Origin: Chloroflexota bacterium
Lineage (GTDB): Bacteria; Chloroflexota; Dehalococcoidia; GIF9; UBA5629
Assembly: GCA_016875925.1 (NCBI GenBank)
Contig: VGOO01000002.1
Location: 4,431-68,430, forward strand
Direction of reading: 5' to 3'
Length of the DNA: 64,000 bases
Shown here: one piece after another, positions 4,780-35,029 of the stretch
Layout: every line of letters starts with the position of its first letter
Position numbering within the stretch: the first letter of the stretch is position 1
Position numbers and translations under genes: made by a program
The notes under the pieces: model-generated
Databases searched by the model: none
The model's input: the letters and a program-made list of their open reading frames with translations, nothing else
What the model was told of the DNA's origin: nothing

Positions 4780-5193
4780 CTACGCCCGATTTTTTGGGGC
4801 GACCAGCAGCTTAAGACCATCGACTTCTAGCACTATCACCTCTATCCCTGCATCAAGATGCTTATCAGCACAGCTCGCCTTCCAGAGCACCCCTTGCACC
4901 TTGACGTAGCCCTCTGGTTTTAGCGGGCTTGTCACTGTTCCCTCGCAGCCGACCAGCGACTCAGCGTATTCCCTGCGCGGCAGGAAAAAAGTGGTACGGC
5001 CCAGTCGATACCTGACGTAAGCCAATGTGGCCAGGGCTACCATCAGAATCGCCAGCACCCAGAGCGGAGCACGGATGCCGAAGTAGGGCAGTACCCAGAT
5101 GACGATAATCACCAGCGCCGTTTCCTCGACGAGGGTGCCTACGACAGCCTGGATGGTGTACCACAGGGGTGGTCTATTACTCACACCGCGCAC
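4780..5193 (-). CDS. NfeD-family membrane protein
   Basis: Hydrophobic N-terminal helices followed by a C-terminal OB-like segment, GCEGTVTSPLKPEGYVKVQGVLWKASC..IEVIVLEVDGLKLLV, typical of NfeD. Confidence 0.7.
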   Translation of the reverse strand: MRGVSNRPPLWYTIQAVVGTLVEETALVIIVIWVLPYFGIRAPLWVLAILMVALATLAYVRYRLGRTTFFLPRREYAESLVGCEGTVTSPLKPEGYVKVQGVLWKASCADKHLDAGIEVIVLEVDGLKLLVAPKNRA

Positions 5194-5196
5194 CTA

Positions 5197-5481
5197 TCAT
5201 GTCAGGGCATCATTGTACCTGCCTTCGCCACAAAGGTAGGCACAATTGGGGCAAAATCTGGAATCGCGAGGTACTACCTCGCCGCAGTTGGGGCAGGTAA
5301 GTTCCAGCTTGGTGCCGCACTGCCCGCAAAACTTGTAGTTGCTGGGGTTCTCGGCCCCGCAGTCGGTACAGGCGGCAGCTTTTCTTTCAGCGGCAGCTAG
5401 CCTGTTCCCGCATTCCGTGCAGAAGCGGTTGGTCAAAGCATTTTCTGTGCCACATTGAGGGCAGAGGAAATTTTTATGCAT
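5197..5481 (-). CDS. Multi zinc-ribbon protein
   Basis: 94 aa made almost entirely of CxxC pairs: CPQCG..CTECG, CTDCG..CGQCG, CPNCG..CPNC. Its stop lies 4 nt upstream of the NfeD start. Confidence 0.7.
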   Translation of the reverse strand: MHKNFLCPQCGTENALTNRFCTECGNRLAAAERKAAACTDCGAENPSNYKFCGQCGTKLELTCPNCGEVVPRDSRFCPNCAYLCGEGRYNDALT

Positions 5482-19328: not shown

Positions 19329-19419
19329 TGGCGGAGGGGGTGGGATTCGAACCCACGTCCCGATACAATCGGGAAACGGTTTTCAAGACCGTCGCCATCG
19401 TCCACTCGGCCACCCCTCC
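19329..19419 (-). tRNA. tRNA-Ser (anticodon UGA)
   Basis: The reverse complement reads GGAGGGGTGGCCGAGTGGACGATGGCGACGGTCTTGAAAACCGTTTCCCGATTGTATCGGGACGTGGGTTCGAATCCCACCCCCTCCGCCA. 7-bp acceptor stem, anticodon loop CU-UGA-AA, long variable arm, T-loop GGTTCGAATCC, encoded CCA. Confidence 0.9.
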
Positions 19420-19530: not shown

Positions 19531-19851
19531 TTAGGAGGTCAGAGTATTATTGCCCATATCATTCTGCAGCGCTCCTTTGCCATAGCCTTCTTCTTCCAGC
19601 TTTTCCATGAGTCGGGCAGCCCTGGGGTAGCCGATACGCAAGCGGCGCTGCAAAAAGGAAGCTGAGATGTTTTTATATTCTATGGCTAGCTGTCTGGCGG
19701 CTTGCAGCATGGCATCTTCACCGTTTTTTTCAACTGAATTTAGTTGTTCCATGTCCTCAAGCCTGACCGGTTTAACCTCAGGTTTTCTTTGGTTACTCCA
19801 GAAATCGACTATCCTCTCGATTTCAGCATCGGAGATAAAAGTCCCCTTTTC
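19531..19851 (-). pseudogene. Duplicated 3' fragment of ftsK (gamma/winged-helix domain); possibly a stand-alone 73-aa product from an internal ATG
   Basis: It translates as ..GTFISDAEIERIVDFWSNQRKPEVKPVRLEDMEQLNSVEKNGEDAMLQAARQLAIEYKNISASFLQRRLRIGYPRAARLMEKLEEEGYGKG. 19573-19847 aligns without gaps to 21931-22205, with about 13 mismatches in 275 by hand count. Confidence 0.7.
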
Positions 19852-21906: not shown

Positions 21907-24543
21907 TCACTCATCATATTTTTCTGCCGTTCCTTTGCCATAGCCCTCTTCCTCTAGCCTTTCCATAATTCGGGCAGCCCTGGGGTAGCCGATACGCAGG
22001 CGACGCTGCAAAAAGGAAGCTGAGATGTTTTTATATTCTATGGCTAGCTGCCTGGCGGCTTGCAGCATGGCATCTTCACCGTTTTTTTCAACTGAATTTA
22101 GTTGTTCCATGTCCTCAAACCTGACCGGTTTAACCTCGGGTCTTCTTTGGTTACTCCAGAAATCGACTATCCTTTCGATTTCAGCATCGGAGATAAAAGT
22201 CCCCTGAAGGCGTTTTGGTTTGCTGGCGTCTGTGGGCATGTACAGCATGTCGCCTCTGCCCAGCAGTTTCTCGGCTCCGGCAGAATCGAGAATGGTCCTT
22301 GAGTCCACCTGGGACGTGAGCGCAAAGCTGATGCGCGTGGGGAAATTGGCCTTGATGAGTCCGGTTACTACGTCAACAGATGGACGCTGGGTAGCTACAA
22401 TGAGGTGGATGCCGGTTGCACGTGCCAGTTGGGCTAAGCGGCACAATGTTTGCTCTACCTCGTCAAAAGCTAACATCATCAGGTCAGCCAGCTCATCGAT
22501 GACCAGCACTATATAGGGCATTGTATCGTCATGCTGTCGATTTGCATTGTAGCTATCGATGTTGCGAGCCCCAGCCTGTGCAAACCTGTGGTAGCGGTTG
22601 TCCATCTCCTGCATTAGCCAGCGCAGCGCCAGTATTGCCTTGTCAGAATCCACAACCACTGGAGCTATGAGGTGGGGCAAACTATTGTAATTGACTAGCT
22701 CTACTCGTTTTGGATCAATCATGATCAACTGCAGGTCATCGGGGGTATTGTGTATGAGGAGGCAGCAAATTATAGAGTTGAGGCAGGCGGTCTTGCCGCT
22801 GCCAGTAGCGCCGGCAATAAGTAGATGGGGCATTCTATCCAGGTGGGCAGCTACTGTTTCTCCTCCTGCTCCTTTGCCCAGGGCCAGAGCCAGCTTTGAC
22901 CTGGCATGTGCCTTCTGAAAAGCGGCGCTCTCGATTACACCACGTAGATTGACAAGACTGAAGGTAGTATTGGGCACCTCAATGCCCACCACTGATTTTC
23001 CCGGCACCGGAGCTTCGATTCTAATGCTTGGCGCGGCCAGCGCCAGGGCAAGGTCGTTAGCCAGGGCACTGATACGGTCTACCTTGACCCTGGTCTTTGA
23101 TATCTCCTCAAGCCGGGTGTGAGCATTGCCAAGTTCGTCTCGCTCTCGGACCCTTTTGTATTTGCGGTCCCAACCTGGCTCGACTCCGAACTGGGTTACT
23201 GTTGGCCCAACGTTAATCTGGACTACTTTAGCCTCAACACCGTAGCTGTTTATGGCCTCTTCGATGAGCTGTGCCCGCTTCTCGATGTCACTCTGGCTTA
23301 GCTCTATTTCCGTGGGCTTATCCAGAATATTTACTGGCGGCAGGTACCAGCCACCGGTGGTAAACACCGACTGGTATTTTATTGGCCCATCTGACTCGGG
23401 AGCAAGTATTTTGTGCGCTGGTGGAGGGGTTATGATGGGGGTTTCTGTAACAGTCTGTTTTTCCCGCTGTGGGGGCGTTTCTGTTTTTGGTGGTGTGGCA
23501 ACTACTTCATTAAAAAGCTGTATTTCTCTGGTAGCAGGGACTGCTGGCGTTTTTGGAGGCATAACACTGATGGCTTTGATAACCGGTTGTATTTCCCTGG
23601 GGGGAGGCATTGTGGGAGTTGTTGGAGGCGTGATGCTGAGAGCTTGTGTAATATGTTGCTTCTCTTCCACAGCAGGCACTTCGGTTGTTTCTTGAGGTGC
23701 TGCGCTGACAGCTTCTATGTCTGGCTGTTTTTCCTCGAGAACAGGTGCTTCTTCTGTTATTGGAGGCGTGGTGTCTACTGGTTGCTGTTCCTCAGGCGTA
23801 GGTTCTTCCGGTTGAGGCATGACAACGGGGGCTTGTAAGTCTGACTCCTTTTCCTCTATGCTAGGGATTTCGTCTTCTGTTGTAGGAATGACACTGGTGG
23901 TTTGCGCAACCGGCTGTTTTCCCTCTGTGGCAGGGGCTTCAGGTGTTTCTGGGGGTGTGATGCTGGCAGCTTCCATGACCGACTGTTCCTCCGGAGCAGG
24001 CACTTCGGCTGTTGGAGGTGTGATATCCGTGGCTTGTGTCACTGGCTGTTTTTCCTCGGGAGTGGACACACCGGTTGAAAAGGGCATAATGACTGTGGTT
24101 TCTGTACCTGTTTCTTCTTCCTCAGAGGAGGTCACTTCAGGTGTTTTTTGAGGTGTGGCGCTGATGGTCTCTGTAACAGGTTTTTGCTTTTCGGGAGCGG
24201 GTGCTCCAGCTGAAAAAGGCATAACAACCTTGGCTTCTGTATCTGCCTTTTTCCTTTCGGTTCTAGCGAATTGGTTGTCTGTTTCTGATTTGGTCGGTCC
24301 AGGTTTGAATTTGGGCTGACGCTGGCTGGTGATGCCTGATGGTGGTGCCAGCGGTGGTGTAGCCGGTGACCTCGCTGTTTGAGGCTTAGGTGGTTTTCCC
24401 TGTGGCGGCATTGCCTGCCGCTTGCTGCCGAAAAGAAAACCACAACTGGGGCAACGACCGGTTGCCTTGTTTATCTTTATCCCGCAACGTGGGCAATTGT
24501 TAGGATTTGTTATAGTTCGTTCTATATTGGATGGTCTTGGCAC
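21907..24543 (-). CDS. ftsK: FtsK/SpoIIIE DNA translocase with an N-terminal zinc ribbon and a repetitive P/T/E-rich linker
   Basis: N-terminus CPRCGIKINKATGRCPSCG. Walker A LIAGATGSGKTACLNS, Walker B YIVLVIDELADLMM, ATQRPSVDV, and gamma domain ISASFLQRRLRIGYPRAARIMERLEEEG. Confidence 0.9.
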   Translation of the reverse strand: MPRPSNIERTITNPNNCPRCGIKINKATGRCPSCGFLFGSKRQAMPPQGKPPKPQTARSPATPPLAPPSGITSQRQPKFKPGPTKSETDNQFARTERKKADTEAKVVMPFSAGAPAPEKQKPVTETISATPQKTPEVTSSEEEETGTETTVIMPFSTGVSTPEEKQPVTQATDITPPTAEVPAPEEQSVMEAASITPPETPEAPATEGKQPVAQTTSVIPTTEDEIPSIEEKESDLQAPVVMPQPEEPTPEEQQPVDTTPPITEEAPVLEEKQPDIEAVSAAPQETTEVPAVEEKQHITQALSITPPTTPTMPPPREIQPVIKAISVMPPKTPAVPATREIQLFNEVVATPPKTETPPQREKQTVTETPIITPPPAHKILAPESDGPIKYQSVFTTGGWYLPPVNILDKPTEIELSQSDIEKRAQLIEEAINSYGVEAKVVQINVGPTVTQFGVEPGWDRKYKRVRERDELGNAHTRLEEISKTRVKVDRISALANDLALALAAPSIRIEAPVPGKSVVGIEVPNTTFSLVNLRGVIESAAFQKAHARSKLALALGKGAGGETVAAHLDRMPHLLIAGATGSGKTACLNSIICCLLIHNTPDDLQLIMIDPKRVELVNYNSLPHLIAPVVVDSDKAILALRWLMQEMDNRYHRFAQAGARNIDSYNANRQHDDTMPYIVLVIDELADLMMLAFDEVEQTLCRLAQLARATGIHLIVATQRPSVDVVTGLIKANFPTRISFALTSQVDSRTILDSAGAEKLLGRGDMLYMPTDASKPKRLQGTFISDAEIERIVDFWSNQRRPEVKPVRFEDMEQLNSVEKNGEDAMLQAARQLAIEYKNISASFLQRRLRIGYPRAARIMERLEEEGYGKGTAEKYDE

Positions 24544-24960: not shown

Positions 24961-25638
24961 ATGCAAATCGATATCTTGGGCATATGCGGCAGCCCTGTTA
25001 AAGGGGGCAACACTGAGGTTTTCCTGAGTGAATGTTTGAAAGCAACTGAGGCTGAGGGCGATGTGAATACGAAGCTGATTTCACTGGCTGGCAAGGATAT
25101 CAAGGATTGCAGGCACTGTAACTGGTGTCTGAGGAAGCAGGAGGAGAACAAGTTCTGTGCGCAGCAGGATGATATGCAGGAGATATATCAGGCGATGGTA
25201 GAAGCAGATGCTGTGCTTTTTGCCAGTCCAGCCTATATCGGCAGGCTTTCTGGATATATGGCTTGCATGATAGACAGGTTGCGTGCTTTTGTGTATGGGA
25301 ACCAATATGGGGGAAAGTTGAAGAATAAGGTTGGTGGCGCCTTGGCGGTAGCCTGGGGCAGAAATTCGGGGCTGGAGACCACGCTGCTTAGTCTGGTATC
25401 TGCTATATTCATACTGGGGATGATACCTGTAATACCACTGGCGAGTCCTGGTTCGCCATTTGGTGCTGCTGGGGTTTCCAGCGAGGGGGGGACGGGGAGA
25501 TTTAATCGCGAGGATAAACTGCTGGTGTTGAGGGATGAGTATGGGCTGGTAGGCGCCAGGGGGCTGGGTAAGAGGCTAGTTGAGGTAACCAGGCTGCTTA
25601 AGGTGGGTGGGGGAGCCCTTTCTGGCCAGGGGAGGTAG
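24961..25638 (+). CDS. Flavodoxin-fold NADPH-dependent FMN reductase / iron-sulfur flavoprotein-like
   Basis: ILGICGSPVKGGNTEVFL, Cys cluster CRHCNWCLRKQEENKFC, and LFASPAYIGRLSG. Confidence 0.8.
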   Translation: MQIDILGICGSPVKGGNTEVFLSECLKATEAEGDVNTKLISLAGKDIKDCRHCNWCLRKQEENKFCAQQDDMQEIYQAMVEADAVLFASPAYIGRLSGYMACMIDRLRAFVYGNQYGGKLKNKVGGALAVAWGRNSGLETTLLSLVSAIFILGMIPVIPLASPGSPFGAAGVSSEGGTGRFNREDKLLVLRDEYGLVGARGLGKRLVEVTRLLKVGGGALSGQGR

Positions 25639-25643
25639 CACGG

Positions 25644-27344
25644 TTATTGAATGGAGTTGATGATTTCCTCGATTTCCTCCAGGCTGTTGAAACGGCCTTG
25701 TTTGATTTTCCTGATGATGCCACTGGTATCAATGAAGTAGGTGGTGGGGAAAGCTTCCGGCTGATATAGCGCATCAGTTTGTCCTTCCAGATCAAGCAAG
25801 GCCGGCAAGGTCAACCTGTTTTTGTTCATGTAATTTCTGACTGTCTGAGGGTCTTCTCTGAAATTAACAAACAACATTGCCAGCTTATCACTTGGCCATT
25901 TGTCGTATAGTGCCTGTAAGTATGGGTTTTCGGCATGGCACGCTCCGCAGTAAGTTAGCCAGAAGTTCACCATAACTATCTTTCCACTAAAGTTGCTCAG
26001 CCTGACAGTAGCACTGTCCAGAGTAGGTAAAGAGAAATCGGGGGCGCGCATACCCACCTTGTTGCCCTCTGGCACAGTCAGCGTCCGAACACTGGCTAGG
26101 ACGAACTCGGACTCATGACCCGCAGCATCCTTTGACTTCAGCGTGATTCTGTATTCGGTACCCGATTTCAGTCCTTTCAAAGTTATGTTGTGGTCGACTG
26201 TAAATCTGTCGCTGGGTGCCTCAATTTTGTTGGGCCACTGGTCTATGGGATATTCGGCATGGCTGGTAGCAGGCTCGTCAGTAGTCCAGGTTATGGTCAG
26301 GCTGGAATCGGTGACGTCAGCAATTTTGACATTTGATATGGCTGGTGGAGAGGTATCAACCAATGTGATAAAGGTGTACTCGCGAGACAGGGAGGGTTTT
26401 TCCCCCTCAGCATCGAAGCTGGCAAATGTCCTGAAGCGGTAGGTGGTTTCTGATTCTAAGTTTGCTATAGTTATGGAGTGGGTGGTGGCTGTGGTATCCT
26501 CGTGCGGCGTTGCGATGAGGTTGGAGGCGTTGCCGGGGTTGGCATTAGCCTTGTAAATCATCAGCCAACCTGTGGCAGGTTTGTCGGTGGCAAAGCTGAC
26601 CTCAGCGCGCTTGTCAGTTACCATTGTGACCTGCACATCCGAAATGGTTGGGCGGGCGCTCTGGATTTTCTGCCTATTCTTGATGTTGCTCAAAATGGTT
26701 TCTATTTCGTACTGGGTCTGAAAAAGTCCGGGTAAGATTAATCTTATTATGCCCTTCTCATCCAGGAATACGTGTGTTGGGTTGTAGATGACACCATAGC
26801 TAGCGGTGGTAGTGTGGGACGGGTCAATTGCTATGGGAAAAGTAACGCCCTTTTCGTTAGCCAACTTCTGGGCTGCTTCTCGGTCTGAATCAGGCACGAT
26901 TGCCAACACCATTACTTCTCTATCTGCCCATCTCAGTTTAATCTTCTGAAGCTGCTCGGCGAGGTATATCTTCTCCCAGTCTGTAGTGGGGTCCCATTCA
27001 GCAGGGCGCCAGAAGCCGATTAAAGCCACATTGCCGCGCAGGTCACTGGAGCTTACGGTCTGACCATCTATGGTCTGGAGGTTGAAGTCCGGAGCTTGAT
27101 TACCCAGTTCATATCCTGCTTCTGGAGCGGCGGCCATTGTCGCCAAGCCCCAAAGTGCCAGCACTATTAAGCATGTTGCAATTCCGCCTGTGATGAAGAT
27201 ATGGCGTCGAGCTAAGTGAGCTACGGATACGAGCGGCGTCAGAAATCGCCGAGCTTTAGAGGCTGGACGCTTGGGAGTTGGTTGCTTCTTTTTTCTGGTC
27301 GTCGGTTTGCGTTTTTTAGTGGCATCTTTTGTCATTCCTGTCAC
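25644..27344 (-). CDS. Membrane-anchored protein: basic N-tail, TM helix, Cys-less thioredoxin-like domain, 2 FN3-like domains, TlpA-like thioredoxin (CGAC)
   Basis: KKRKPTTRKKKQPTPKRP, then TM GGIATCLIVLALWGLA. GNQAPDFNLQTIDG..LIGFWRPAEWDP has no CxxC. FN3-like LTITWTTDEPATSHAEY. C-terminal GMRAPDFSLP..VNFWLTYCGACHAENP. Confidence 0.8.
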   Translation of the reverse strand: MTGMTKDATKKRKPTTRKKKQPTPKRPASKARRFLTPLVSVAHLARRHIFITGGIATCLIVLALWGLATMAAAPEAGYELGNQAPDFNLQTIDGQTVSSSDLRGNVALIGFWRPAEWDPTTDWEKIYLAEQLQKIKLRWADREVMVLAIVPDSDREAAQKLANEKGVTFPIAIDPSHTTTASYGVIYNPTHVFLDEKGIIRLILPGLFQTQYEIETILSNIKNRQKIQSARPTISDVQVTMVTDKRAEVSFATDKPATGWLMIYKANANPGNASNLIATPHEDTTATTHSITIANLESETTYRFRTFASFDAEGEKPSLSREYTFITLVDTSPPAISNVKIADVTDSSLTITWTTDEPATSHAEYPIDQWPNKIEAPSDRFTVDHNITLKGLKSGTEYRITLKSKDAAGHESEFVLASVRTLTVPEGNKVGMRAPDFSLPTLDSATVRLSNFSGKIVMVNFWLTYCGACHAENPYLQALYDKWPSDKLAMLFVNFREDPQTVRNYMNKNRLTLPALLDLEGQTDALYQPEAFPTTYFIDTSGIIRKIKQGRFNSLEEIEEIINSIQ

Positions 27345-27381
27345 CTTTTAGTTCAGAGTGTGGTGTGGTTTGCCGCCAGCG

Positions 27382-29340
27382 CTAGAGAGACCTGATGAGT
27401 TCTTCTATTGCTGCCAGATTTGGGAAACTGCCTTGCTTGGTCTCTCTGATAATGCCCTCTCGGTCTATGAAGAATGTTCTCGGTATGCTGCTAACATCAT
27501 ACCTGCTGCCCACGGCGCCCTCTATATCGAGCAGTATAGTGAAAGTAAAGCGCTCGCCGGCGAGGAAATTTCTCACTGTACTGATGTTTTCCTCGAGGTT
27601 GACTGCCAGCACGACCAGTTCATCTTCCTTCCATGTCCTGGTGATATCCTGGAAATAGGGCATTTCGCCAACACACGGGCTGCACCAGGTAGCCCAGAAG
27701 TTTAGCACCACCTTCTTGCCTCGCAAGCTCTTCAGGCTTATCTCCTCGCCGTTGATGGTTTTAAGGGTGAAATCCGGGGCGCGATTGCCTATTTTGGGGC
27801 CGACGGGCAGAGATGCCTGAGTCCTTAATGTATTGTCCAGTGATGTGGCTTCATTCCCGCTGGCATCTGTGGATTTGACCTTGAAATGATAAAGCGTGTT
27901 CGGCTCCAGACCGGTTAGGATTACGCTGTGGCTAGTGGTCATTTGGTTGTCCAGTGGTGAGGTTTTTCCATAGGTCTCGCTGAGGCCGTATTCTACCTGG
28001 CTAGTAGCTGGCTCGTTGGTAGCCCAGGTGATGGTGACGCTGGTTTCTTCTATCTTGGAAGCGCTCACTTCCGTAAGGATGGGTGGAGTGGTATCGGACT
28101 GCGCTAGCGTGGTGAGTTCTTTTTCCAGCGAGGCTTCTTTGCCATTGGCGTCTTTGGATAGGAGAGTAAGGTGATAAGTGGTACTGGCCTTCAGGTTGTG
28201 TAAGGGTACCCAGTGTTTGGTAACTAACGGTGCCTGGAGCTCAGTCCAGGTGCAAAAGCCGCTGGGGTCGCAGACTATTACCTGGGCGCTGGTGGGTTTG
28301 TCTGTTTCCCAGGTAACGATGGCGCCTGTGTCAGTGATGGAGGATAGCTGGACATTCTTGATTGTTGCGGGCTTTTCTCCAAATGACAACCGCGGGGTGG
28401 ATATGTTCTGTGGAAGGGATATAGCCGGTTTCCAGACCTGGGTGATGATGTAGTATCCGGTGATAAACAGCGTGACGGAAATCAAAAGGGCGAGGAGGGT
28501 TCTGAGCATACCGCCTGTTCTAGGCGCCGGAATAGCATACCCTCTGGCTGCCAGCGACCGGGAATCCCCTTGGAACGCTCTTGATGGCACGGGGTAGTTC
28601 ACGGCTGCCGGCGCGGCGATAGCTGTTCCCATAGCTGGTGCTAGTGGTTGTTGAGCAGATACTCGAGGAGTTGCTGGAGACTGGCTATAGCTGTCGGGCT
28701 TGTTTACAGCATGCGGGATTGGAACAGGAACGGATTGCACTGCGTAGCCCTGTTGTGCTCTGGCGCCGGTAATATATCCTCCGGAATAGGACTGTTGTAT
28801 TGTTCCTAGCACAGCTTGGGGTCTTGGCACCTGTGGTTGTGCTGATGTTGGTGTTGGTGGTGTCATCGGCCTGTATGGGGATGCTTGCGGTGTCATTTGG
28901 TGTGGCATCTGTGGAGTTTGTGGTGGTCCTTCGTGTGGCATGCTTCTGCCTATGAGCAGACCACAGCTAAAGCACTGGGTATTGGCGGCACTTAAACTGG
29001 CACTGCATCTGGGGCAATTACGGTGGGTTGCAGATGTGCGGCTTGGAGTGAGCTGGGGTGTTGCTGGTTGTGGTCTGGATGGTGGTTGATATTGTGGTTG
29101 GGGGGTGTACGGCCTAGGTGGGACAGGAGGCATTTGTGGCTGTTGAACTGCTGTGTATTGCTGGGCTGCCCGAGCCCAGGTATTGCTGCCGCAGAGGAAA
29201 CCGCATGTGGGGCAGAATCTGGATTTGTCAGGAAGGATGGCATGACAACGAGTACACCACCGGGTGCCGCATCTCCAGCAAATTCGCTGCCCCGGGGGGT
29301 TCTGTGCCTGGCACCTGGGACATAAAACTATGTTCTGCAC
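27382..29340 (-). CDS. Zinc-ribbon (x3) / P,Q-rich / TM / 2 FN3-like / TlpA-like thioredoxin (WCSPC) protein
   Basis: CPRCQAQNPPGQRICWRCG, CTRCHAI..CPTCG, CPRCSAS..CFSCG. TM LLALLISVTLFITGYYII. VTITWATNEPATSQVEYG. GNRAPDFTLKT..LNFWATWCSPCVGEMP. Confidence 0.85.
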   Translation of the reverse strand: MQNIVLCPRCQAQNPPGQRICWRCGTRWCTRCHAILPDKSRFCPTCGFLCGSNTWARAAQQYTAVQQPQMPPVPPRPYTPQPQYQPPSRPQPATPQLTPSRTSATHRNCPRCSASLSAANTQCFSCGLLIGRSMPHEGPPQTPQMPHQMTPQASPYRPMTPPTPTSAQPQVPRPQAVLGTIQQSYSGGYITGARAQQGYAVQSVPVPIPHAVNKPDSYSQSPATPRVSAQQPLAPAMGTAIAAPAAVNYPVPSRAFQGDSRSLAARGYAIPAPRTGGMLRTLLALLISVTLFITGYYIITQVWKPAISLPQNISTPRLSFGEKPATIKNVQLSSITDTGAIVTWETDKPTSAQVIVCDPSGFCTWTELQAPLVTKHWVPLHNLKASTTYHLTLLSKDANGKEASLEKELTTLAQSDTTPPILTEVSASKIEETSVTITWATNEPATSQVEYGLSETYGKTSPLDNQMTTSHSVILTGLEPNTLYHFKVKSTDASGNEATSLDNTLRTQASLPVGPKIGNRAPDFTLKTINGEEISLKSLRGKKVVLNFWATWCSPCVGEMPYFQDITRTWKEDELVVLAVNLEENISTVRNFLAGERFTFTILLDIEGAVGSRYDVSSIPRTFFIDREGIIRETKQGSFPNLAAIEELIRSL

Positions 29341-29601
29341 TCTAATACCGTTATTGGAACGTTGCTGAGCTTGTGGTCAGCGTCACCTCCGCACTTTGCC
29401 GCCTCTATTTCTGCGAGATACAGCATAAAGATACATCCCTATTATACAGTCAAGTCAAGATATAGCAAAACGCTCGGGTATGCAATAGCGTGTGAAGACA
29501 GAATGTTTCTTTGTCAGTTGCACTAGCCAGGTTTAGTGTGAGGGGCAATTAGTGAAGCTGATAGATAATGATTACATGTTGGTCGCCTGCGGCTAAGACA
29601 G

Positions 29602-31329
29602 CTATATCGAATCCATTATCTGTTTTATTTGCCCCGGCCTTATGAAGCGCTGCATATCGATTTTCCTTATGATGCCGTCTTCATCGATAAATACGTGCAT
29701 GGGCAATGTCCACACTGGATAGGCTTTCTGGTCCGCTGTCGGTGCATATATAAAAGTGGGCTGGAGGGGTCCCCCTTTCAGGTCTTCGCTGTATTTTTCC
29801 TCCAGGCTTCGGAACCTTCTATTTGTATTCTGAATTCTGTCTTCGCGTGTTGCTAGCCGGTCTTCGTATACGTCGATGCAAACAGTAACTATTTCCCAAT
29901 CTTTGAGATAAGCATATTCTGCCAAGTCGCCTGTCAATCTGGTCGGGTCTGCCTTTTTAACCTCAATGCTCTTTTCATGGACATCTCGAATCCAGGCAAA
30001 CTCGTAAATACAGGCCCCGCAATACGTTGACCAGAAGTCAAGGAATATCTTTCGACCCTCCTGGCCGTCCTTTGGCAAGAATTGGCTCAGTTCGAATTCA
30101 CCGTTGTCGTTCAGATGCAGGTCTTTTATCCAATCTCGATTGCCTCCTTGGTATGGCACAAGGACAAGGTTGCGGGCGCGCGTGCCCACCTGATGACCTT
30201 CGTAAATTTTGGATTGTGTATTGAACATATGAATCTTAGCATCCGCAGGGTTGCCGCACTGATTGGTCGCCTCTATACGCGCATAATACGAAGTGAGAGG
30301 CTTGAGTCCAGGGATTCTAGCAGTGTGTGTTAAATGGTCAGTAGTTCTTGATGGTATGGGCTCGCTGTAAATGTCCGTATGCTCTTGTCTGTATCTGACC
30401 GTGCAGGTTGTCGGCTCGTTGGTCGTCCATTCTATAGTTGCGCTAACGTCGCTGTATTTGCGGGTCTTTACCTGCGATATGATTGGGGCAATTGTGTCTT
30501 CGCATTTGAAGTGGGCTATGACATGTTTGTTTCTATCCATAGTGACATCTATGGCTAAAGACGAAGGGGTGGATGGCTCGTCTAAATCCCCTGTCCATTT
30601 ATCGAATTTGTATCCCGGGGCAGGTTCGGCCGTTAATTTCACTTTAGCATTTTGCCTGTAGCTTGTTTCTTCAGGTTCAATACGCACCATACCCTTCTTT
30701 AAGTCATCTGGTTCTGTGGTCAGGGTGAATGTCGTTTGGATACTTGTTGGTGCTGGTGGTGGTGCTGCTGCTGGTGGTGACGATAGTGATGAGTCACCTC
30801 CAGTATTTCGGAGGTGTGATATTAAGGAACCCATGCCCACTACGATTCCTGCCAGTAGGCCAAACAGCAGCAAGCCGGCCAGTACAGGTCTTAGATATCG
30901 CGCAATAGGTGGGATACGCCACTCCCAGGGTTCGGAGTAGGTTGTCTTAGACTGCTTTACCTTTGGGGTTTTCGGTTCGCGGTATTCTATCTCGTCTAGC
31001 ATAGGACTCCGTGGCATTATATTTCGAGGCTCGCTTTCAAATTGGCGTGGCGTTTTGTCCGTGAATGGCTTTGTGCCTGAGGATGTTGGTGGGGGTGATG
31101 TGGGGTGACCTGGGATAGCTGGTTCTTGTGGTATTTGTTGGGCATGTCTGGGCGCGCTTGTGCCGTGTAGATTGCCGCATCTCGGGCAGCGTCCTGTTTT
31201 TGGGTCGACCTTGCCACCGCATCCCTGTTTCTGGCAAATCTGCTGCACAGGTTGTTCTTTGGGCGGTTGGGAGTGACGGCGCGGGTCAGGTGGTTGGGTG
31301 TACTTGGGGGTGAAATCCATGGGTGACAT
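29602..31329 (-). CDS. Zinc-ribbon / P-rich / TM / beta-sandwich repeats / thioredoxin-like (YCGAC) protein
   Basis: GCGGKVDPKTGRCPRCG. TM LAGLLLFGLLAGIVVGMG. PGYKFDKWTGD (InlB-B-repeat-like). ATIEWTTNEPTTCTVRY. LDFWSTYCGACIYEF. The first ATG is 31329; the ORF-track start 31389 is a TTG. The start is uncertain. Confidence 0.8.
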   Translation of the reverse strand: MSPMDFTPKYTQPPDPRRHSQPPKEQPVQQICQKQGCGGKVDPKTGRCPRCGNLHGTSAPRHAQQIPQEPAIPGHPTSPPPTSSGTKPFTDKTPRQFESEPRNIMPRSPMLDEIEYREPKTPKVKQSKTTYSEPWEWRIPPIARYLRPVLAGLLLFGLLAGIVVGMGSLISHLRNTGGDSSLSSPPAAAPPPAPTSIQTTFTLTTEPDDLKKGMVRIEPEETSYRQNAKVKLTAEPAPGYKFDKWTGDLDEPSTPSSLAIDVTMDRNKHVIAHFKCEDTIAPIISQVKTRKYSDVSATIEWTTNEPTTCTVRYRQEHTDIYSEPIPSRTTDHLTHTARIPGLKPLTSYYARIEATNQCGNPADAKIHMFNTQSKIYEGHQVGTRARNLVLVPYQGGNRDWIKDLHLNDNGEFELSQFLPKDGQEGRKIFLDFWSTYCGACIYEFAWIRDVHEKSIEVKKADPTRLTGDLAEYAYLKDWEIVTVCIDVYEDRLATREDRIQNTNRRFRSLEEKYSEDLKGGPLQPTFIYAPTADQKAYPVWTLPMHVFIDEDGIIRKIDMQRFIRPGQIKQIMDSI

Positions 31330-31428
31330 CTTTCTAATTATACAAATCGGCAGGGTAAATTTAAATTGTGTGGCTTGTTTAAGTAACAATCCGTGTCAAC
31401 TTCATATCATTGGTGTGCTGCCTTGACG

Positions 31429-31764
31429 CTATCTGATGATTTTTGGTTCCATCTTGCCGAAATAACCGCAGGCTTTGTTGTTGGGGCAGCGTCCGTGGGC
31501 GATGTTCGTTGGGTTACCACAGCGGGGGCAGGCGTATTGTGCTGTCTTGCCGGGCAATGTTTCATCTTTTTTTAAGGGAGATTCGAGTTTGCTCTTTGGC
31601 GGAGGAACGGTCACAGTTGCGCCCATGTGGTTAATGGCGCGGAGGCGGATATCACGGTGCTCCATCTGGCCGATATAGCCACAGTGGGGACAATTGCCAG
31701 CGGCAAATCTGATTCTGGCTTCACATTTGGGGCAGGTGTAGCGATATTTGAACTCGTCTTGCAT
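31429..31764 (-). CDS. Small double zinc-ribbon protein
   Basis: 111 aa: CPKCEARIRFAAGNCPHCG and CPRCGNPTNIAHGRCPNNKACG. Confidence 0.65.
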   Translation of the reverse strand: MQDEFKYRYTCPKCEARIRFAAGNCPHCGYIGQMEHRDIRLRAINHMGATVTVPPPKSKLESPLKKDETLPGKTAQYACPRCGNPTNIAHGRCPNNKACGYFGKMEPKIIR

Positions 31765-31778
31765 GTCTTGAGTCGTTA

Positions 31779-33044
31779 TTAGGCTGGCTTGATTACTTCT
31801 ATGCCCATATAGGGCATTAGCACATCCGGGATCGCTATGCTGCCATCGGCTTGCTGATAGTTTTCCATTATGGCGATAACCACTCGTGGGAGCGCAAGCC
31901 CTGAGCCGTTCAAGGTGTGGACGAATGCAGGTTTGGCTTCTGGCGCTGGACGATAGCGGATGTTAGCACGCCTGGCCTGAAAGTCAGTACAGTTGCTGCA
32001 AGAGCTGACCTCCAGCCATTCGTTGCAGCCTGGAGCCCACATTTCGATATCGAATGACTTGGCGGAGGCGAAACCCAGGTCTGCGGTGCAAAGTTGCAGC
32101 ACGCGATAGGGTATGTTCAACCTGCGGCAGACCTCCTCGGCATTGTCCAGCATCTTCTGGAGTTCATGGTCGGACATTTGGGGCTCGGTGAATTTGTATA
32201 GCTCTACCTTGTCAAACTGGTGGCCCCTCTTGATGCCGCGGGTATCTTTGCCGGCTGCCATTTTCTCGCGCCGGAAGCAGGCGGTGTGCGAGACGTAGTA
32301 AACTGGCAAAGTGCCCTGCGGAAGGATTTCATCGCGGTGCAAATTGGTCAAGGGCACTTCCGCTGTGGGCACAAACCAATAGTCGTCCTCTTCGTCGTGA
32401 TACAGGTTGTCGGCGAATTTGGGCAGATTTCCCGAGCCTATTACACATTCCCGTTTCACCATAAAGGGAGGGTATATCTCAGTATAGCCATGCCCTTTTA
32501 CATGTAGGTCCAGCATGAAGGAGATGAGCGAGCGCTGGAGAAGAGAGCCTGTGCCTCTGAGAACGTAGAAGCGGGTGCCTGACAGTTTCACACCTCGTTG
32601 GAAATCGATGATGCCCAGCTTTTCTCCCAGTTCCCAGTGGGGCAAGGGCTTGAAAGAAAACTCTCGTGGCTTGCCCCAGGAGCGGACCACTACATTGTCT
32701 TCCGCATCTTTGCCGAGGGGGACATCATCTGTCGGGATATTTGGCAATCGCAGGAGGTGGTCTTCAAGCTGAGCTGCCAGTTGAGCTATTTCTACCTCCA
32801 GGGAGTCTATCTTGTGCCCGATTTGGCGCATGTCGGCGATAAGCTCTGGCGGCTTCTCTGCCATTTTGCTGATTTGCTTACTTACTTCATTGCGTTTGGC
32901 TCTGAGGCTCTCCATCTCGTGGAGAAGCTGGCGGTGTTGCTTATCCAATGCTATGATTTGGTCAAGTGGAGCTTTATCGCCTCGCTTTTCCAGAGCTTGG
33001 CGGATGATATCAGGATTTTCGCGGACCAGTTTTATATCCAGCAT
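31779..33044 (-). CDS. serS: Seryl-tRNA synthetase
   Basis: MLDIKLVRENPD.., a coiled-coil N-arm, and class II motifs FRRE.. and GSGLALPR. Confidence 0.95.
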   Translation of the reverse strand: MLDIKLVRENPDIIRQALEKRGDKAPLDQIIALDKQHRQLLHEMESLRAKRNEVSKQISKMAEKPPELIADMRQIGHKIDSLEVEIAQLAAQLEDHLLRLPNIPTDDVPLGKDAEDNVVVRSWGKPREFSFKPLPHWELGEKLGIIDFQRGVKLSGTRFYVLRGTGSLLQRSLISFMLDLHVKGHGYTEIYPPFMVKRECVIGSGNLPKFADNLYHDEEDDYWFVPTAEVPLTNLHRDEILPQGTLPVYYVSHTACFRREKMAAGKDTRGIKRGHQFDKVELYKFTEPQMSDHELQKMLDNAEEVCRRLNIPYRVLQLCTADLGFASAKSFDIEMWAPGCNEWLEVSSCSNCTDFQARRANIRYRPAPEAKPAFVHTLNGSGLALPRVVIAIMENYQQADGSIAIPDVLMPYMGIEVIKPA

Positions 33045-33065: not shown

Positions 33066-34556
33066 TTACTTTGTCTTCAACTGTGGGAACAGGATAACCT
33101 CGCGAATGGATTGTTTGTCTGCTAGCAGCATTACCAATCTGTCAATCCCTATTCCCAGTCCACCGGTTGGTGGCATTCCATATTCTAAGGCTAAAAGGAA
33201 GTCTTCGTCTATAATGTCGATTTCTAGAGCTTCACCTTTGGTTGTTTTCGGTGCTTTTGCTTTTGCTTGCTTGTGAAATCGTTCTCTTTGCTCTAGGGGG
33301 TCGTTGAGTTCGGTGAAGGCATTGGCGATTTCCATGCCGGCGATGAACCCTTCAAAACGTTCCACTAATTGGCTTCCGTCTCGTTTTCTCTTTGCCAGTG
33401 GCGACATATCGATAGGGTAATCTACAAGGAATGTTGGTTGTATCAAGTGTGGTTCAACAAAGGTGGAGATGAGTTCGTCAATCAGTCTTCCTCTGTCCTT
33501 TGTGGAGTCGACATCCATACCTAGCTCTCGCATCTTGGCTTGCATTGATTTTGTATCTGGATATTCTTCGAAGTCGATTTTGCATCGTTCCTTGATGGCC
33601 TGGCGCAGGGAGAGACGTTTCCAGGGTGGAGCCAGGTTGATGTGCTTTCCATCGAATGTAATCTCGGTGTTGCCGGTAGTCTCCTTGGCGATGTGGCAGA
33701 CCATGTCTTCAACCATAACCATGACATCGTTGTAGTCGGCGTAAGCCTGGTAGCTTTCTAGCATGGTGAACTCGGGATTGTGTCTGGTGGAGACTCCTTC
33801 GTTGCGAAACACGCGGCCGATTTCATAGACTTTGTCGAGGCCACCTATGATCAGCCGTTTGAGATGAAGCTCTAGGGCTATGCGAAGGTATAGGTCTTCG
33901 TCGAGGGCATGATGGTGAGTTTGAAAGCGGCGTGCCAGTGCCCCACCTGCTACAGGTTGCAATACTGGCGTTTCCACTTCGATGAACCCGTGTTCGTTGA
34001 GGTATTTTCGAATGGAATTGATGACGCGGCTGCGAAGCAAGAATATGGGCTTTACTTCTTCGTTGGATATCAGGTCGAGATAGCGCTGACGGTAGCGCTT
34101 CTCCACATCAGCCAGGCCATGCCATTTCTCAGGCAATGGTTGAAGGGACTTAGCCAGGAGGGTGTAATCTGTCACGTCCAGGGTGATTTGTCCTGTTTTG
34201 GTTTTGAAAAGCTTTCCTTTGGCTCCGACGAAATCGCCGATGTCTAGCTCGTGTAGAAACTGGAATTTGTCCTCGCCCAGGTGGTCATGGCTAAAATAAA
34301 GCTGGATTTTGCCAGAACAGTCGCGGATGTCCAGGAACGCTATTTTGCCCATGAGGCGCATGGCGGTGATGCGACCTGCCAGGCTCAACTCATCCGCTGT
34401 GATATCTGTTTTTTTATCTTGGGATTCGAAGAGAGCTATTGCCTCCTGGGTAGTGTGGGTGCGATCGTAGGAATGTGGGTACGGGTCTTTTCCTTGGCTG
34501 CGGATTCTTGCCAGCTTGTCCAGACGTTGCTGGGCAATTTGTTCCAATCTAGCCAT
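33066..34556 (-). CDS. lysS: Lysyl-tRNA synthetase, class II
   Basis: OB anticodon domain ..GRITAMRLMGKIAFLDIRD. Motifs FRNEG and GGLGIGIDRLVMLL. Confidence 0.95.
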   Translation of the reverse strand: MARLEQIAQQRLDKLARIRSQGKDPYPHSYDRTHTTQEAIALFESQDKKTDITADELSLAGRITAMRLMGKIAFLDIRDCSGKIQLYFSHDHLGEDKFQFLHELDIGDFVGAKGKLFKTKTGQITLDVTDYTLLAKSLQPLPEKWHGLADVEKRYRQRYLDLISNEEVKPIFLLRSRVINSIRKYLNEHGFIEVETPVLQPVAGGALARRFQTHHHALDEDLYLRIALELHLKRLIIGGLDKVYEIGRVFRNEGVSTRHNPEFTMLESYQAYADYNDVMVMVEDMVCHIAKETTGNTEITFDGKHINLAPPWKRLSLRQAIKERCKIDFEEYPDTKSMQAKMRELGMDVDSTKDRGRLIDELISTFVEPHLIQPTFLVDYPIDMSPLAKRKRDGSQLVERFEGFIAGMEIANAFTELNDPLEQRERFHKQAKAKAPKTTKGEALEIDIIDEDFLLALEYGMPPTGGLGIGIDRLVMLLADKQSIREVILFPQLKTK

Positions 34557-34561
34557 GATAC

Positions 34562-35029
34562 TCAGCTAACTTCGATTATTAGTAGCTTGAGCTTTCCGGC
34601 AGGAGTTTGCACTTCAACCTCGTCGCCCACCTTCTTGCCCAAGAGCGCTCGTCCTACAGGGGATTCATTTGAGATCTTGCCGTTAGCGGGATTCGATTCG
34701 GCGCTGCCCACTATGGTGAACTGGTCAATTTTACCATCCTGGTTCTGGATTAGCACTTTGTCACCAAGCTCGACCACTCCGGGCACTGCTGCTGCCTCTA
34801 TAACGATGGCATTTCTGAGGGTGTTCTCAAGCATGAGGATTCTGCCCTCTATAAAAGCCTGTTCATTCTTGGCATCCTCGTACTCGGCATTGTTTTCAGT
34901 TCCGCCCATTTCTCGGGCGCGCTTAATCTTAGCAGCGACCTCTTCCCTTTTAACAGAAACCAGGTGCTCCAGCTCAGCCTTGAGTTTGCTTAGACCCTCT
35001 TCGGTAACGAGAATTTTCTTCTGGCTCAT
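34562..35029 (-). CDS. greA: Transcription elongation factor GreA
   Basis: LVTEEGLSKLKAELEHL..EDAKNEQAFIEGRI..SPVGRALLGKKVGDEVEV. Confidence 0.95.
   Translation of the reverse strand: MSQKKILVTEEGLSKLKAELEHLVSVKREEVAAKIKRAREMGGTENNAEYEDAKNEQAFIEGRILMLENTLRNAIVIEAAAVPGVVELGDKVLIQNQDGKIDQFTIVGSAESNPANGKISNESPVGRALLGKKVGDEVEVQTPAGKLKLLIIEVS

Follow-up and report, generated by a model that had tools for sequence, protein, structure and literature searches.

A conserved Dehalococcoidia array of stalked, ResA-like thioredoxin proteins with putative cytoplasmic zinc ribbons

A 64-kb stretch of DNA from a Chloroflexota bacterium of the class Dehalococcoidia (contig VGOO01000002.1, positions 4,431 to 68,430; hereafter the window) contains, directly downstream of serS, four co-directional genes that we designated Z, C, B, and A in the order of their transcription. 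A, B, and C encode paralogous single-pass membrane proteins, in which one or two beta-sandwich domains precede a C-terminal ResA/TlpA-like thioredoxin domain, and Z encodes a small protein with two predicted zinc ribbons. The family is a conserved core-genome expansion in Dehalococcoidia and not peculiar to the window. As a variation on a well-known class of enzymes, its architecture is genuine, conserved, and uncharacterised, though not categorically new. Regarding its function, we give an even chance to the reading that the locus encodes a Dehalococcoidia-specific set of outward-facing thiol-disulfide oxidoreductases, which would be mounted on stalks, act mainly as reductants or isomerases, and use their zinc ribbons for assembly.

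The original prediction for this locus had placed four co-directional genes behind serS, and a check of the open reading frames (ORFs) recovered all of them at the predicted positions on the minus strand, which is the strand of all window genes mentioned below unless noted otherwise. Z (31429-31764; 111 aa, soluble, two Cys4 ribbons) starts 14 nt past the serS stop codon and is followed by C (29602-31329; 575 aa), B (27382-29340; 652 aa), and A (25644-27335; 563 aa), each encoding a predicted type II membrane protein.

A, B, and C each possess one hydrophobic helix (residues 49-67, 282-300, and 169-187, respectively) with lysine and arginine residues on its N-terminal side. This single transmembrane (TM) helix, the N-termini that are either K/R-rich or carry Cys4 ribbons, and the location of the extracellular-type FN3 and Flg_new_2 domains C-terminal to the helix together predict an N-in/C-out topology. 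The thioredoxin domains are accordingly expected outside the cytoplasm, as had been proposed; a cytoplasmic placement is not predicted. The paralogy of the three proteins is evident from pairwise comparisons: A and B are 38% identical over 334 aa (E 2e-72), and the alignments of B with C and of A with C reach E-values of 2e-24 and 5e-19. A profile comparison of C-type and B-type proteins by hhalign (E 2e-74) covers the whole thioredoxin domain. The sequence features quoted in the original prediction are present, namely the motif ITWxT[ND]EP, the active sites WCSPC (B) and YCGAC (A and C), and the tail ID..GIIR..Q/M..F. The Pfam domains and the single TM helix also agree with the predicted common order of N-terminal region, TM helix, FN3-like domains, and TlpA-like domain, except that A contains an additional thioredoxin-like domain without cysteines. 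Likewise, the expected one to two FN3 domains were found as pairs in A and B (PF00041, 53.2 and 46.6 bits, cut-off 25), whereas C combines one FN3 domain with a Flg_new_2 domain that had been missed.

Protein B shows the complete architecture, with three zinc ribbons, P/Q-rich disordered linkers, a TM helix, two FN3 domains, and a ResA-like thioredoxin domain. Pfam matches comprise DZR (1.5e-10, residues 7-47), Zn_Ribbon_1, fn3 (3.9e-12), Pur_ac_phosph_N (5.5e-14), and AhpC-TSA (9.6e-30), the AhpC-TSA/Redoxin match spanning residues 517-645. Ribbons 1 and 2 (29203-29322) form the DZR match (PF12773, 41.5 bits, cut-off 27.3); residues C29, C43, C46, and G47 are invariant in the homologue alignment, and the AlphaFold2 (AF2) model of this part has a pLDDT of 78-88 (about 85). 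Ribbon 3 (28963-29016; CPRCSASLSAANTQCFSCGLLIG, residues ~107-129) is supported by the homologue alignment and modelled with a pLDDT of ~70. The stretches at residues 56-105 and 132-276 are P/Q-rich and, in the same model, disordered. The TM helix (28441-28497), identified by hydrophobicity, corresponds to an AF2 helix at 277-302. Behind it lie FN3-1 (28111-28362), FN3-2 (27823-28077; Pfam and AF2), and the thioredoxin domain (27385-27798), which carries WCSPC at 553-556, Glu559, and the cis-Pro loop IPRTFFID. Both FN3 domains and the thioredoxin domain are modelled with a pLDDT >90. We compared the 135-aa cytoplasmic module of B with 1.84 billion representative sequences. The few full-length matches were all B-type proteins or fragments thereof, and the remaining ones generic short ribbons, indicating that the full three-ribbon tail is confined to this family and occurs on no other ectodomain class.

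FN3-1 of B contains a cysteine pair (C357/C363, C-x5-C; 28252-28272) within a beta-hairpin, which is found in only a subset of the B-type homologues and also in two homologues without a thioredoxin CxxC motif (P0050 and P0076). It probably forms a structural disulfide. A catalytic role of this pair, as for the C-x5-C motif of the DsbD alpha domain, was rejected because only this subset of the B-type homologues carries it.

In protein A, a K/R-rich tail (34% K+R before the helix) and the TM helix (27144-27200) are followed by two thioredoxin-like domains separated by an FN3 pair (26100-26666; Pfam, fn3 3.6e-14). Accordingly, AhpC-TSA matches in two stretches that flank the FN3 domains (~80-226 and 430-546; 2.5e-43). 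The membrane-proximal domain (26679-27113, ~residues 78-222; FWRPAEWDPTTDWEK) is Redoxin-like, lacks cysteines (FWRPAEWDP), and can be aligned with the thioredoxin domain of B (32% identity, E 4e-17). It is retained in eight out of eight A-type clusters. The distal domain (25647-26063) harbors YCGAC at 466-469, Glu472, and FPTTYFID.

Protein C consists of one ribbon, a P-rich linker, a TM helix, a Flg_new_2 domain, an FN3 domain, and a thioredoxin-like domain with insertions. The putative cytoplasmic ribbon (31177-31236; CQKQGC...CPRCG) was assigned from its Cys4 pattern and alignments, and the TM helix (30829-30885) from hydrophobicity and an AF2 helix at 143-174 in the 575-aa numbering. The Flg_new_2 domain (30493-30735), an InlB B-repeat-like beta domain, matches PF18998 with 44.1 bits (cut-off 23.6; 2e-11) and has a pLDDT of ~88. 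The FN3 domain (30199-30492) aligns to FN3-2 of B, has a pLDDT of ~90, and gave FN3 matches with Foldseek; its Pfam fn3 score (22.1 bits, cut-off 25) and that of Pur_ac_phosph_N are below threshold. The thioredoxin-like domain (29605-30177) combines YCGAC, a glutamate at position +3 (E463), the cis-Pro loop LPMHVFID, and a third cysteine (TVCID), which is invariant in the C-type alignment. Neither this cysteine nor the insertions had been recognized in the original prediction. Because of the insertions, Pfam gives no match to this domain, but C orthologues do match Redoxin (PF08534).

The 111-aa double-ribbon protein predicted at the head of the array corresponds to Z, which matches UPF0547 (6.3e-08, 33 bits, cut-off 29) and stays just below the threshold for DZR (26 bits, cut-off 27.3). 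All of its eight cysteines are invariant among orthologues. The original prediction had not recognized that Z aligns end to end with residues 23-116 of P0160, a C-type homologue, in its cytoplasmic N-domain (33% identity, E 8e-16), an alignment that identifies Z as a putative free-standing paralogue of the C-type cytoplasmic domain. The genome encoding P0160 also contains a separate Z gene that was not called by the annotators. Z is present in every locus of the window's type with an intact interval between serS and the C-type gene (16 including the window) and is accompanied by a Flg_new_2-type C gene wherever the locus could be assessed. Annotation pipelines also overlooked the Z orthologue that is present in several related contigs (L003, 6414-6758; L085, 5553..5897).

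Next to these architectural features, the thioredoxin domains themselves point to the ResA group. AhpC-TSA (PF00578) scores 147.4 bits in A and 103.5 bits in B (cut-off 26), and the best NCBIfam matches are ResA, StoA, and DsbE, all below their equivalog/subfamily cut-offs. By sequence, the best solved relative of B is the ResA structure 1st9 (phmmer, 4e-25). By fold, its modelled domain superimposes on B. subtilis ResA with a TM-score of 0.92-0.94 and an rmsd of 1.1-1.3 Å at 36% identity (Foldseek), followed by StoA, Etrx1/2, and CcmG, all of which are extracytoplasmic reductants. B carries FWATWC-x-PC in agreement with the family motif FWxTWCxPC. A glutamate three residues past the CxxC motif, the position of Glu80 in ResA, is found in B (E559), A (E472), and C (E463) and is invariant in all three homologue alignments (A1, A2, and A4), even where the CxxC motif is lost. 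Active site and cis-Pro loop occur together in B (WCSPC/IPRTF), domain 2 of A (YCGAC/FPTTY), and C (YCGAC/LPMHV); domain 1 of A has no cysteine.

With B. subtilis ResA as the best match in both sequence and fold, the array proteins could be ordinary ResA/CcmG orthologues that function in cytochrome c maturation. We regard this as very unlikely. The NCBIfam ResA model PRK03147 scores 120.3 bits in B, 166.6 bits in A (two domains summed), and 27.7 bits in C, and none reaches the cut-off of 170. Within 10 kb of seven Pfam-annotated loci (L001-L005, L085, and L015), there is no ccdA (PF02683), resB (PF05140), or resC/ccsA (PF01578) gene, and the larger ORFs of the window contain no CxxCH motif. 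Moreover, three to six paralogues are found per genome, some of them without CxxC, and the FN3 stalk would keep the catalytic domain away from a membrane-embedded haem-handling complex. In line with the original prediction, we thus found neither a characterised family nor a ccm/res operon in the annotated flanks: database names of the relatives are generic ("redoxin domain-containing protein" or "peroxiredoxin"), and our literature search gave no description of this architecture or of a characterised member and met zinc ribbons only in unrelated contexts. The label "peroxiredoxin", used in some JGI annotations, stems from the generic Pfam name of the AhpC-TSA match and fits the active site poorly. 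That the array proteins are indeed peroxiredoxins is barely credible, since their sites are of the TlpA/ResA type (WCxxC/YCxxC), the peroxiredoxin motif PxxxT/SxxC is absent from all array proteins, and the peroxiredoxin models of NCBIfam score only 15-49 bits against cut-offs of 140-270.

The architecture is not rare, and the family turned out to be widespread. A protein search yielded 342 relatives, many with the full ribbon-FN3-Redoxin architecture. In a scan of 185,579 species genomes, full-length matches were restricted to metagenome-assembled genomes (MAGs) of Dehalococcoidia/Chloroflexota; outside this group, matches were limited to FN3 repeats or isolated thioredoxin domains. Mapping with hidden Markov models built from alignments of the family revealed three locus layouts. 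Type 1 (16 loci including the window) has the order greA-lysS-serS-Z-C-B-(A)-(FMN_red)-sucCD; in the window, greA (34562-35029), lysS (33066-34556), and serS (31779-33044) lie upstream of the array. The suggested check of neighborhood conservation thus gave a clear answer, with greA-lysS-serS-Z-C-B(-A) kept in many Dehalococcoidia MAGs. Within type 1, the A-type gene is limited to the window lineage, UBA5620, L022, and L085. In type 1b, greA-lysS-serS is followed by three genes without Z, and the ribbons are located on the last gene. Type 2 is found elsewhere in the genome (L013-L019, L021, and L033) and comprises a small thioredoxin (Trx), a ribbon+2FN3+Trx protein, an FN3-Trx protein, and a Trx-Trx protein; L015, for example (CP070642.1, 1390720-1409050), occupies an unrelated site flanked by transporters. 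Types 1 and 2 occur together in single genomes, for example CP070642.1 (L009 and L015), CAYNVO01, and JBEKIW01; the 1.76-Mb chromosome CP070642.1 encodes at least six such genes. The GC content is even over the whole window and the array is flanked by housekeeping genes, which argues for a core-genome function and against an island.

A census of the active sites revealed that the motifs depend on the position within the array. In type 1, most C-type proteins have F/YCGAC (12 of the 17 genes listed), all intact B-type genes but one encode WCxPC, and in A-type proteins the first domain lacks cysteines while the second is variable. In type 1b, gene 1 mostly carries CPEC, often as YCPEC, gene 2 carries WC[TSN]PC, and the ribbon-bearing gene is variable. 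In type 2, the small thioredoxin mostly has NCKEC and the remaining members mostly [ST]CxAC and NCxAC, and the ribbon-bearing member has lost CxxC in all cases, with NFWQ[DN][IV]QQ[SC]R conserved in most (e.g., NFWQDIQQSRN). Since these motifs are constant by array position across genomes, they indicate functional specialisation, that is, a division of labour rather than redundancy. Judged from their sequences, the type 1 paralogues thus appear specialised as a B-type with WCxPC, a C-type with F/YCGAC, a third cysteine, and insertions, and an A-type with an inactive proximal and an active distal domain. All complete arrays mapped except L047 contain a ribbon-bearing member, including those in which its thioredoxin domain lacks CxxC.

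Based on these observations, we propose the following mechanism for a set of stalked, outward-facing oxidoreductases. The domains with CxxC would mainly reduce or isomerise disulfides of proteins that are exported or located on the surface. Catalysis would take place in the envelope of these anaerobes, wall-less or with an S-layer, at a height of several nanometres over the membrane. Recharging would require a membrane electron conduit of the CcdA/DsbD type, presumably encoded elsewhere. By analogy to the non-catalytic b/b' domains of protein disulfide isomerase, the thioredoxin folds without cysteines may serve as binding modules. The cytoplasmic zinc ribbons would not carry electrons but could mediate protein interactions by which the array is assembled or positioned, and Z might take part in this.

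Several points weigh against this proposal. The thioredoxin domain of C is modelled with medium confidence only (pLDDT 50-79), and Foldseek returned FN3 matches but none for this domain. No CcdA/DsbD electron donor or candidate substrate gene is located within 10 kb of the arrays in the Pfam-annotated loci, and, according to TM counts, the window contains no CcdA-like ORF with six TM helices. The direction of catalysis is not readable from sequence, and Gram-positive bacteria have some TlpA-like proteins that function as oxidants. In addition, we know of no characterised precedent for the motifs CGAC, CPEC, and CKEC, and the role assigned to the ribbons is inferred.

The direction of catalysis separates our proposal from oxidative folding of surface proteins, which was one of the two functions suggested in the original prediction. 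Here, the array proteins would be DsbA-like oxidants that insert disulfides. Some proteins of the TlpA/CcmG fold in monoderm bacteria are oxidants indeed, and the FN3-1 cysteine pair of some members implies that disulfides are formed outside the cell. Nevertheless, we consider this function unlikely: WCxPC, the Glu80 equivalent, and the matches to known reductants are features of the ResA type, and neither DsbB nor VKOR was found in the Pfam-annotated 10-kb flanks of the seven loci. Furthermore, the names of related MAGs (deep lake water, peat, fen, Black Sea 750 m) suggest oxygen-poor sources, as far as habitats can be read from names.

The second suggested function was transmembrane redox sensing. 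In such a sensor or organiser, the ectodomain would sense or bind a redox cue or ligand and the ribbons would relay it to a cytoplasmic partner, with Z as a soluble competitor or co-factor. Four observations speak in favor of it: in the cytoplasmic region of B, which is otherwise disordered and variable, conservation is limited to ribbons 2 and 3, the type 2 ribbon-bearing member has a conserved non-catalytic sequence in place of CxxC, Z represents a free paralogue of the tail, and in the adjacent FtsK a ribbon of the same subtype takes the place of the membrane domain. Against it stands the lack of any recognisable output domain and of a conserved sigma factor, kinase, or regulator beside the arrays in the annotated flanks, where the Pfam lists of the seven loci and a scan of the neighbors of the second array gave only transporters and metabolic genes. 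Ribbons are entirely absent from the A-type protein and from several further members of the arrays, and the Pfam scan of the array proteins gave no match to zf-HC2, the ZAS-type zinc-binding anti-sigma domain. Taken together, sensing remains a minority possibility with a low probability.

The ftsK gene of the window (21907-24543) encodes a protein without TM helix. It starts with a single zinc ribbon (CPRCGIKINKATGRCPSCGFLFG, ~24427-24495) of the same subtype as ribbon 3 of B, which is followed by ~360 aa of a repetitive P/T/E-rich linker and a normal alpha/beta/gamma motor. As judged from its sequence pattern, this ribbon subtype (CPxCG-x8-GxCxxCG[LF]L.G, followed by a Pro-rich linker) appears to be common to B, C, the soluble Z, and the TM-less FtsK of this organism. 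We rejected the ribbon-bearing FtsK as a general form, as 71 of 71 close full-length relatives in metagenomes (motors 64-84% identical) have three to four TM helices and lack a ribbon. This form is restricted to the present organism. A more speculative idea, which we rate as rather doubtful, is that the ribbon-bearing members are transmembrane organisers. The shared ribbon would then dock B, C, Z, and FtsK at a common cytoplasmic or septal site and couple outward thiol-redox chemistry, or ligand binding by the folds without CxxC, in space or in function to a cytoplasmic process, for instance cell division or chromosome segregation.

While the extracytoplasmic thiol-redox systems of Proteobacteria, Firmicutes, and Actinobacteria are well understood, those of Chloroflexota are, to our knowledge, essentially unstudied. 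Cultured relatives of the organism described here lack a cell wall of the conventional kind, and their redox enzymes are exposed on the outside of the membrane. Against this background, small Dehalococcoidia genomes such as the chromosome CP070642.1 devote two conserved arrays to stalked ResA-like proteins, at least six in number, with active sites that are differentiated or inactivated. The retention of such arrays in genomes of this size implies an important and specialised redox function in the envelope. The ribbons, the soluble paralogue Z, and the TM-less FtsK also offer a tractable way into the role of N-terminal modules consisting of a ribbon and a TM helix, which, as far as we know, are very common in monoderm bacteria and still unexplained.

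The start sites of the array genes were chosen because the N-termini of homologues align there. The ORF of C extends to a TTG at 31389, and its true start is probably the ATG at 31329 (575 aa; homologue N-termini MSPMD). The ORF of A reaches a GTG at 27344, with 27335 as the probable start (563 aa; MTEKTTKKRK), and the GTG start of B at 29340 is backed by homologue N-termini of the form MQP.I.LC. In the public gene calls for an identical JGI contig, the zinc ribbons of both B and C are missing (P0001 with 519 aa; C called with 466 aa), and the calls for related contigs likewise often miss those 5' parts of B and C genes that encode the ribbons. Scans for promoters and terminators of the locus gave nothing beyond consensus-level hints. 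A sigma-70-like consensus match (10/12) at 31337-31365 ends ~7 nt short of the ATG proposed for C and, if real, would result in a near-leaderless C transcript; a second such match (10/12) is located at 29441-29468 within the 261-nt gap between C and B.

On the plus strand, a gene at 24961-25638 converges on the array and ends 5 nt from the stop codon of A. Its product belongs to the FMN_red family, contains a CxxCxxC...C motif, and is taken here to be Isf-like, that is, similar to iron-sulfur flavoproteins. An FMN_red neighbor also follows the array in L006, L011, L022, and L085. Further away, a small ORF (19534-19851; ~73-106 aa), which has tRNA-Ser(TGA) (19329-19419) on one side and a gene for an acyl-CoA dehydrogenase on the other, was called an FtsK_gamma-only protein in the identical JGI contig. 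Zinc-ribbon modules are recurrent in this genome: a 94-aa ORF (5197-5481) consists almost entirely of zinc ribbons and is located directly upstream of a small membrane ORF (4780-5193), which by eye is presumably NfeD-like.

Compared with known systems, the array proteins share with the ResA/TlpA/CcmG/DsbE/StoA group a single N-in/C-out anchor, which is predicted here, and a thioredoxin fold with TlpA-type additions, and with B. subtilis ResA in particular FWxTWCxPC, the glutamate at +3 (Glu80), and the cis-Pro. They differ from this group by one to two beta-sandwich stalk domains between anchor and catalytic domain, by a cytoplasmic N-terminus of 50-280 residues with up to three zinc ribbons, and by their occurrence as tandem paralogue arrays with distinct or lost CxxC motifs and no res/ccm operon in the flanks examined. 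Etrx1 and Etrx2 of Streptococcus pneumoniae resemble them as paralogous surface thioredoxin-like proteins of similar fold in an organism without outer membrane. Unlike the array proteins, both are lipoproteins without stalk or cytoplasmic domain, and the etrx genes are located with CcdA and MsrAB partners, which are missing from the annotated flanks of the arrays. Protein disulfide isomerase (a-b-b'-a') provides an analogy to the A-type, as it also joins redox-inactive and active thioredoxin folds in one polypeptide, but the domains of A are TlpA-type, separated by two FN3 domains, and membrane-anchored. Finally, some proteins of monoderm bacteria, TcaA of S. aureus among them, combine a DZR/zinc ribbon and a TM helix with an ectodomain. 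Like the ribbon-bearing array proteins, they appear to have a Cys4 ribbon at the N-terminus, only one TM helix, and a large portion outside the cell, but the ectodomain is a different one.

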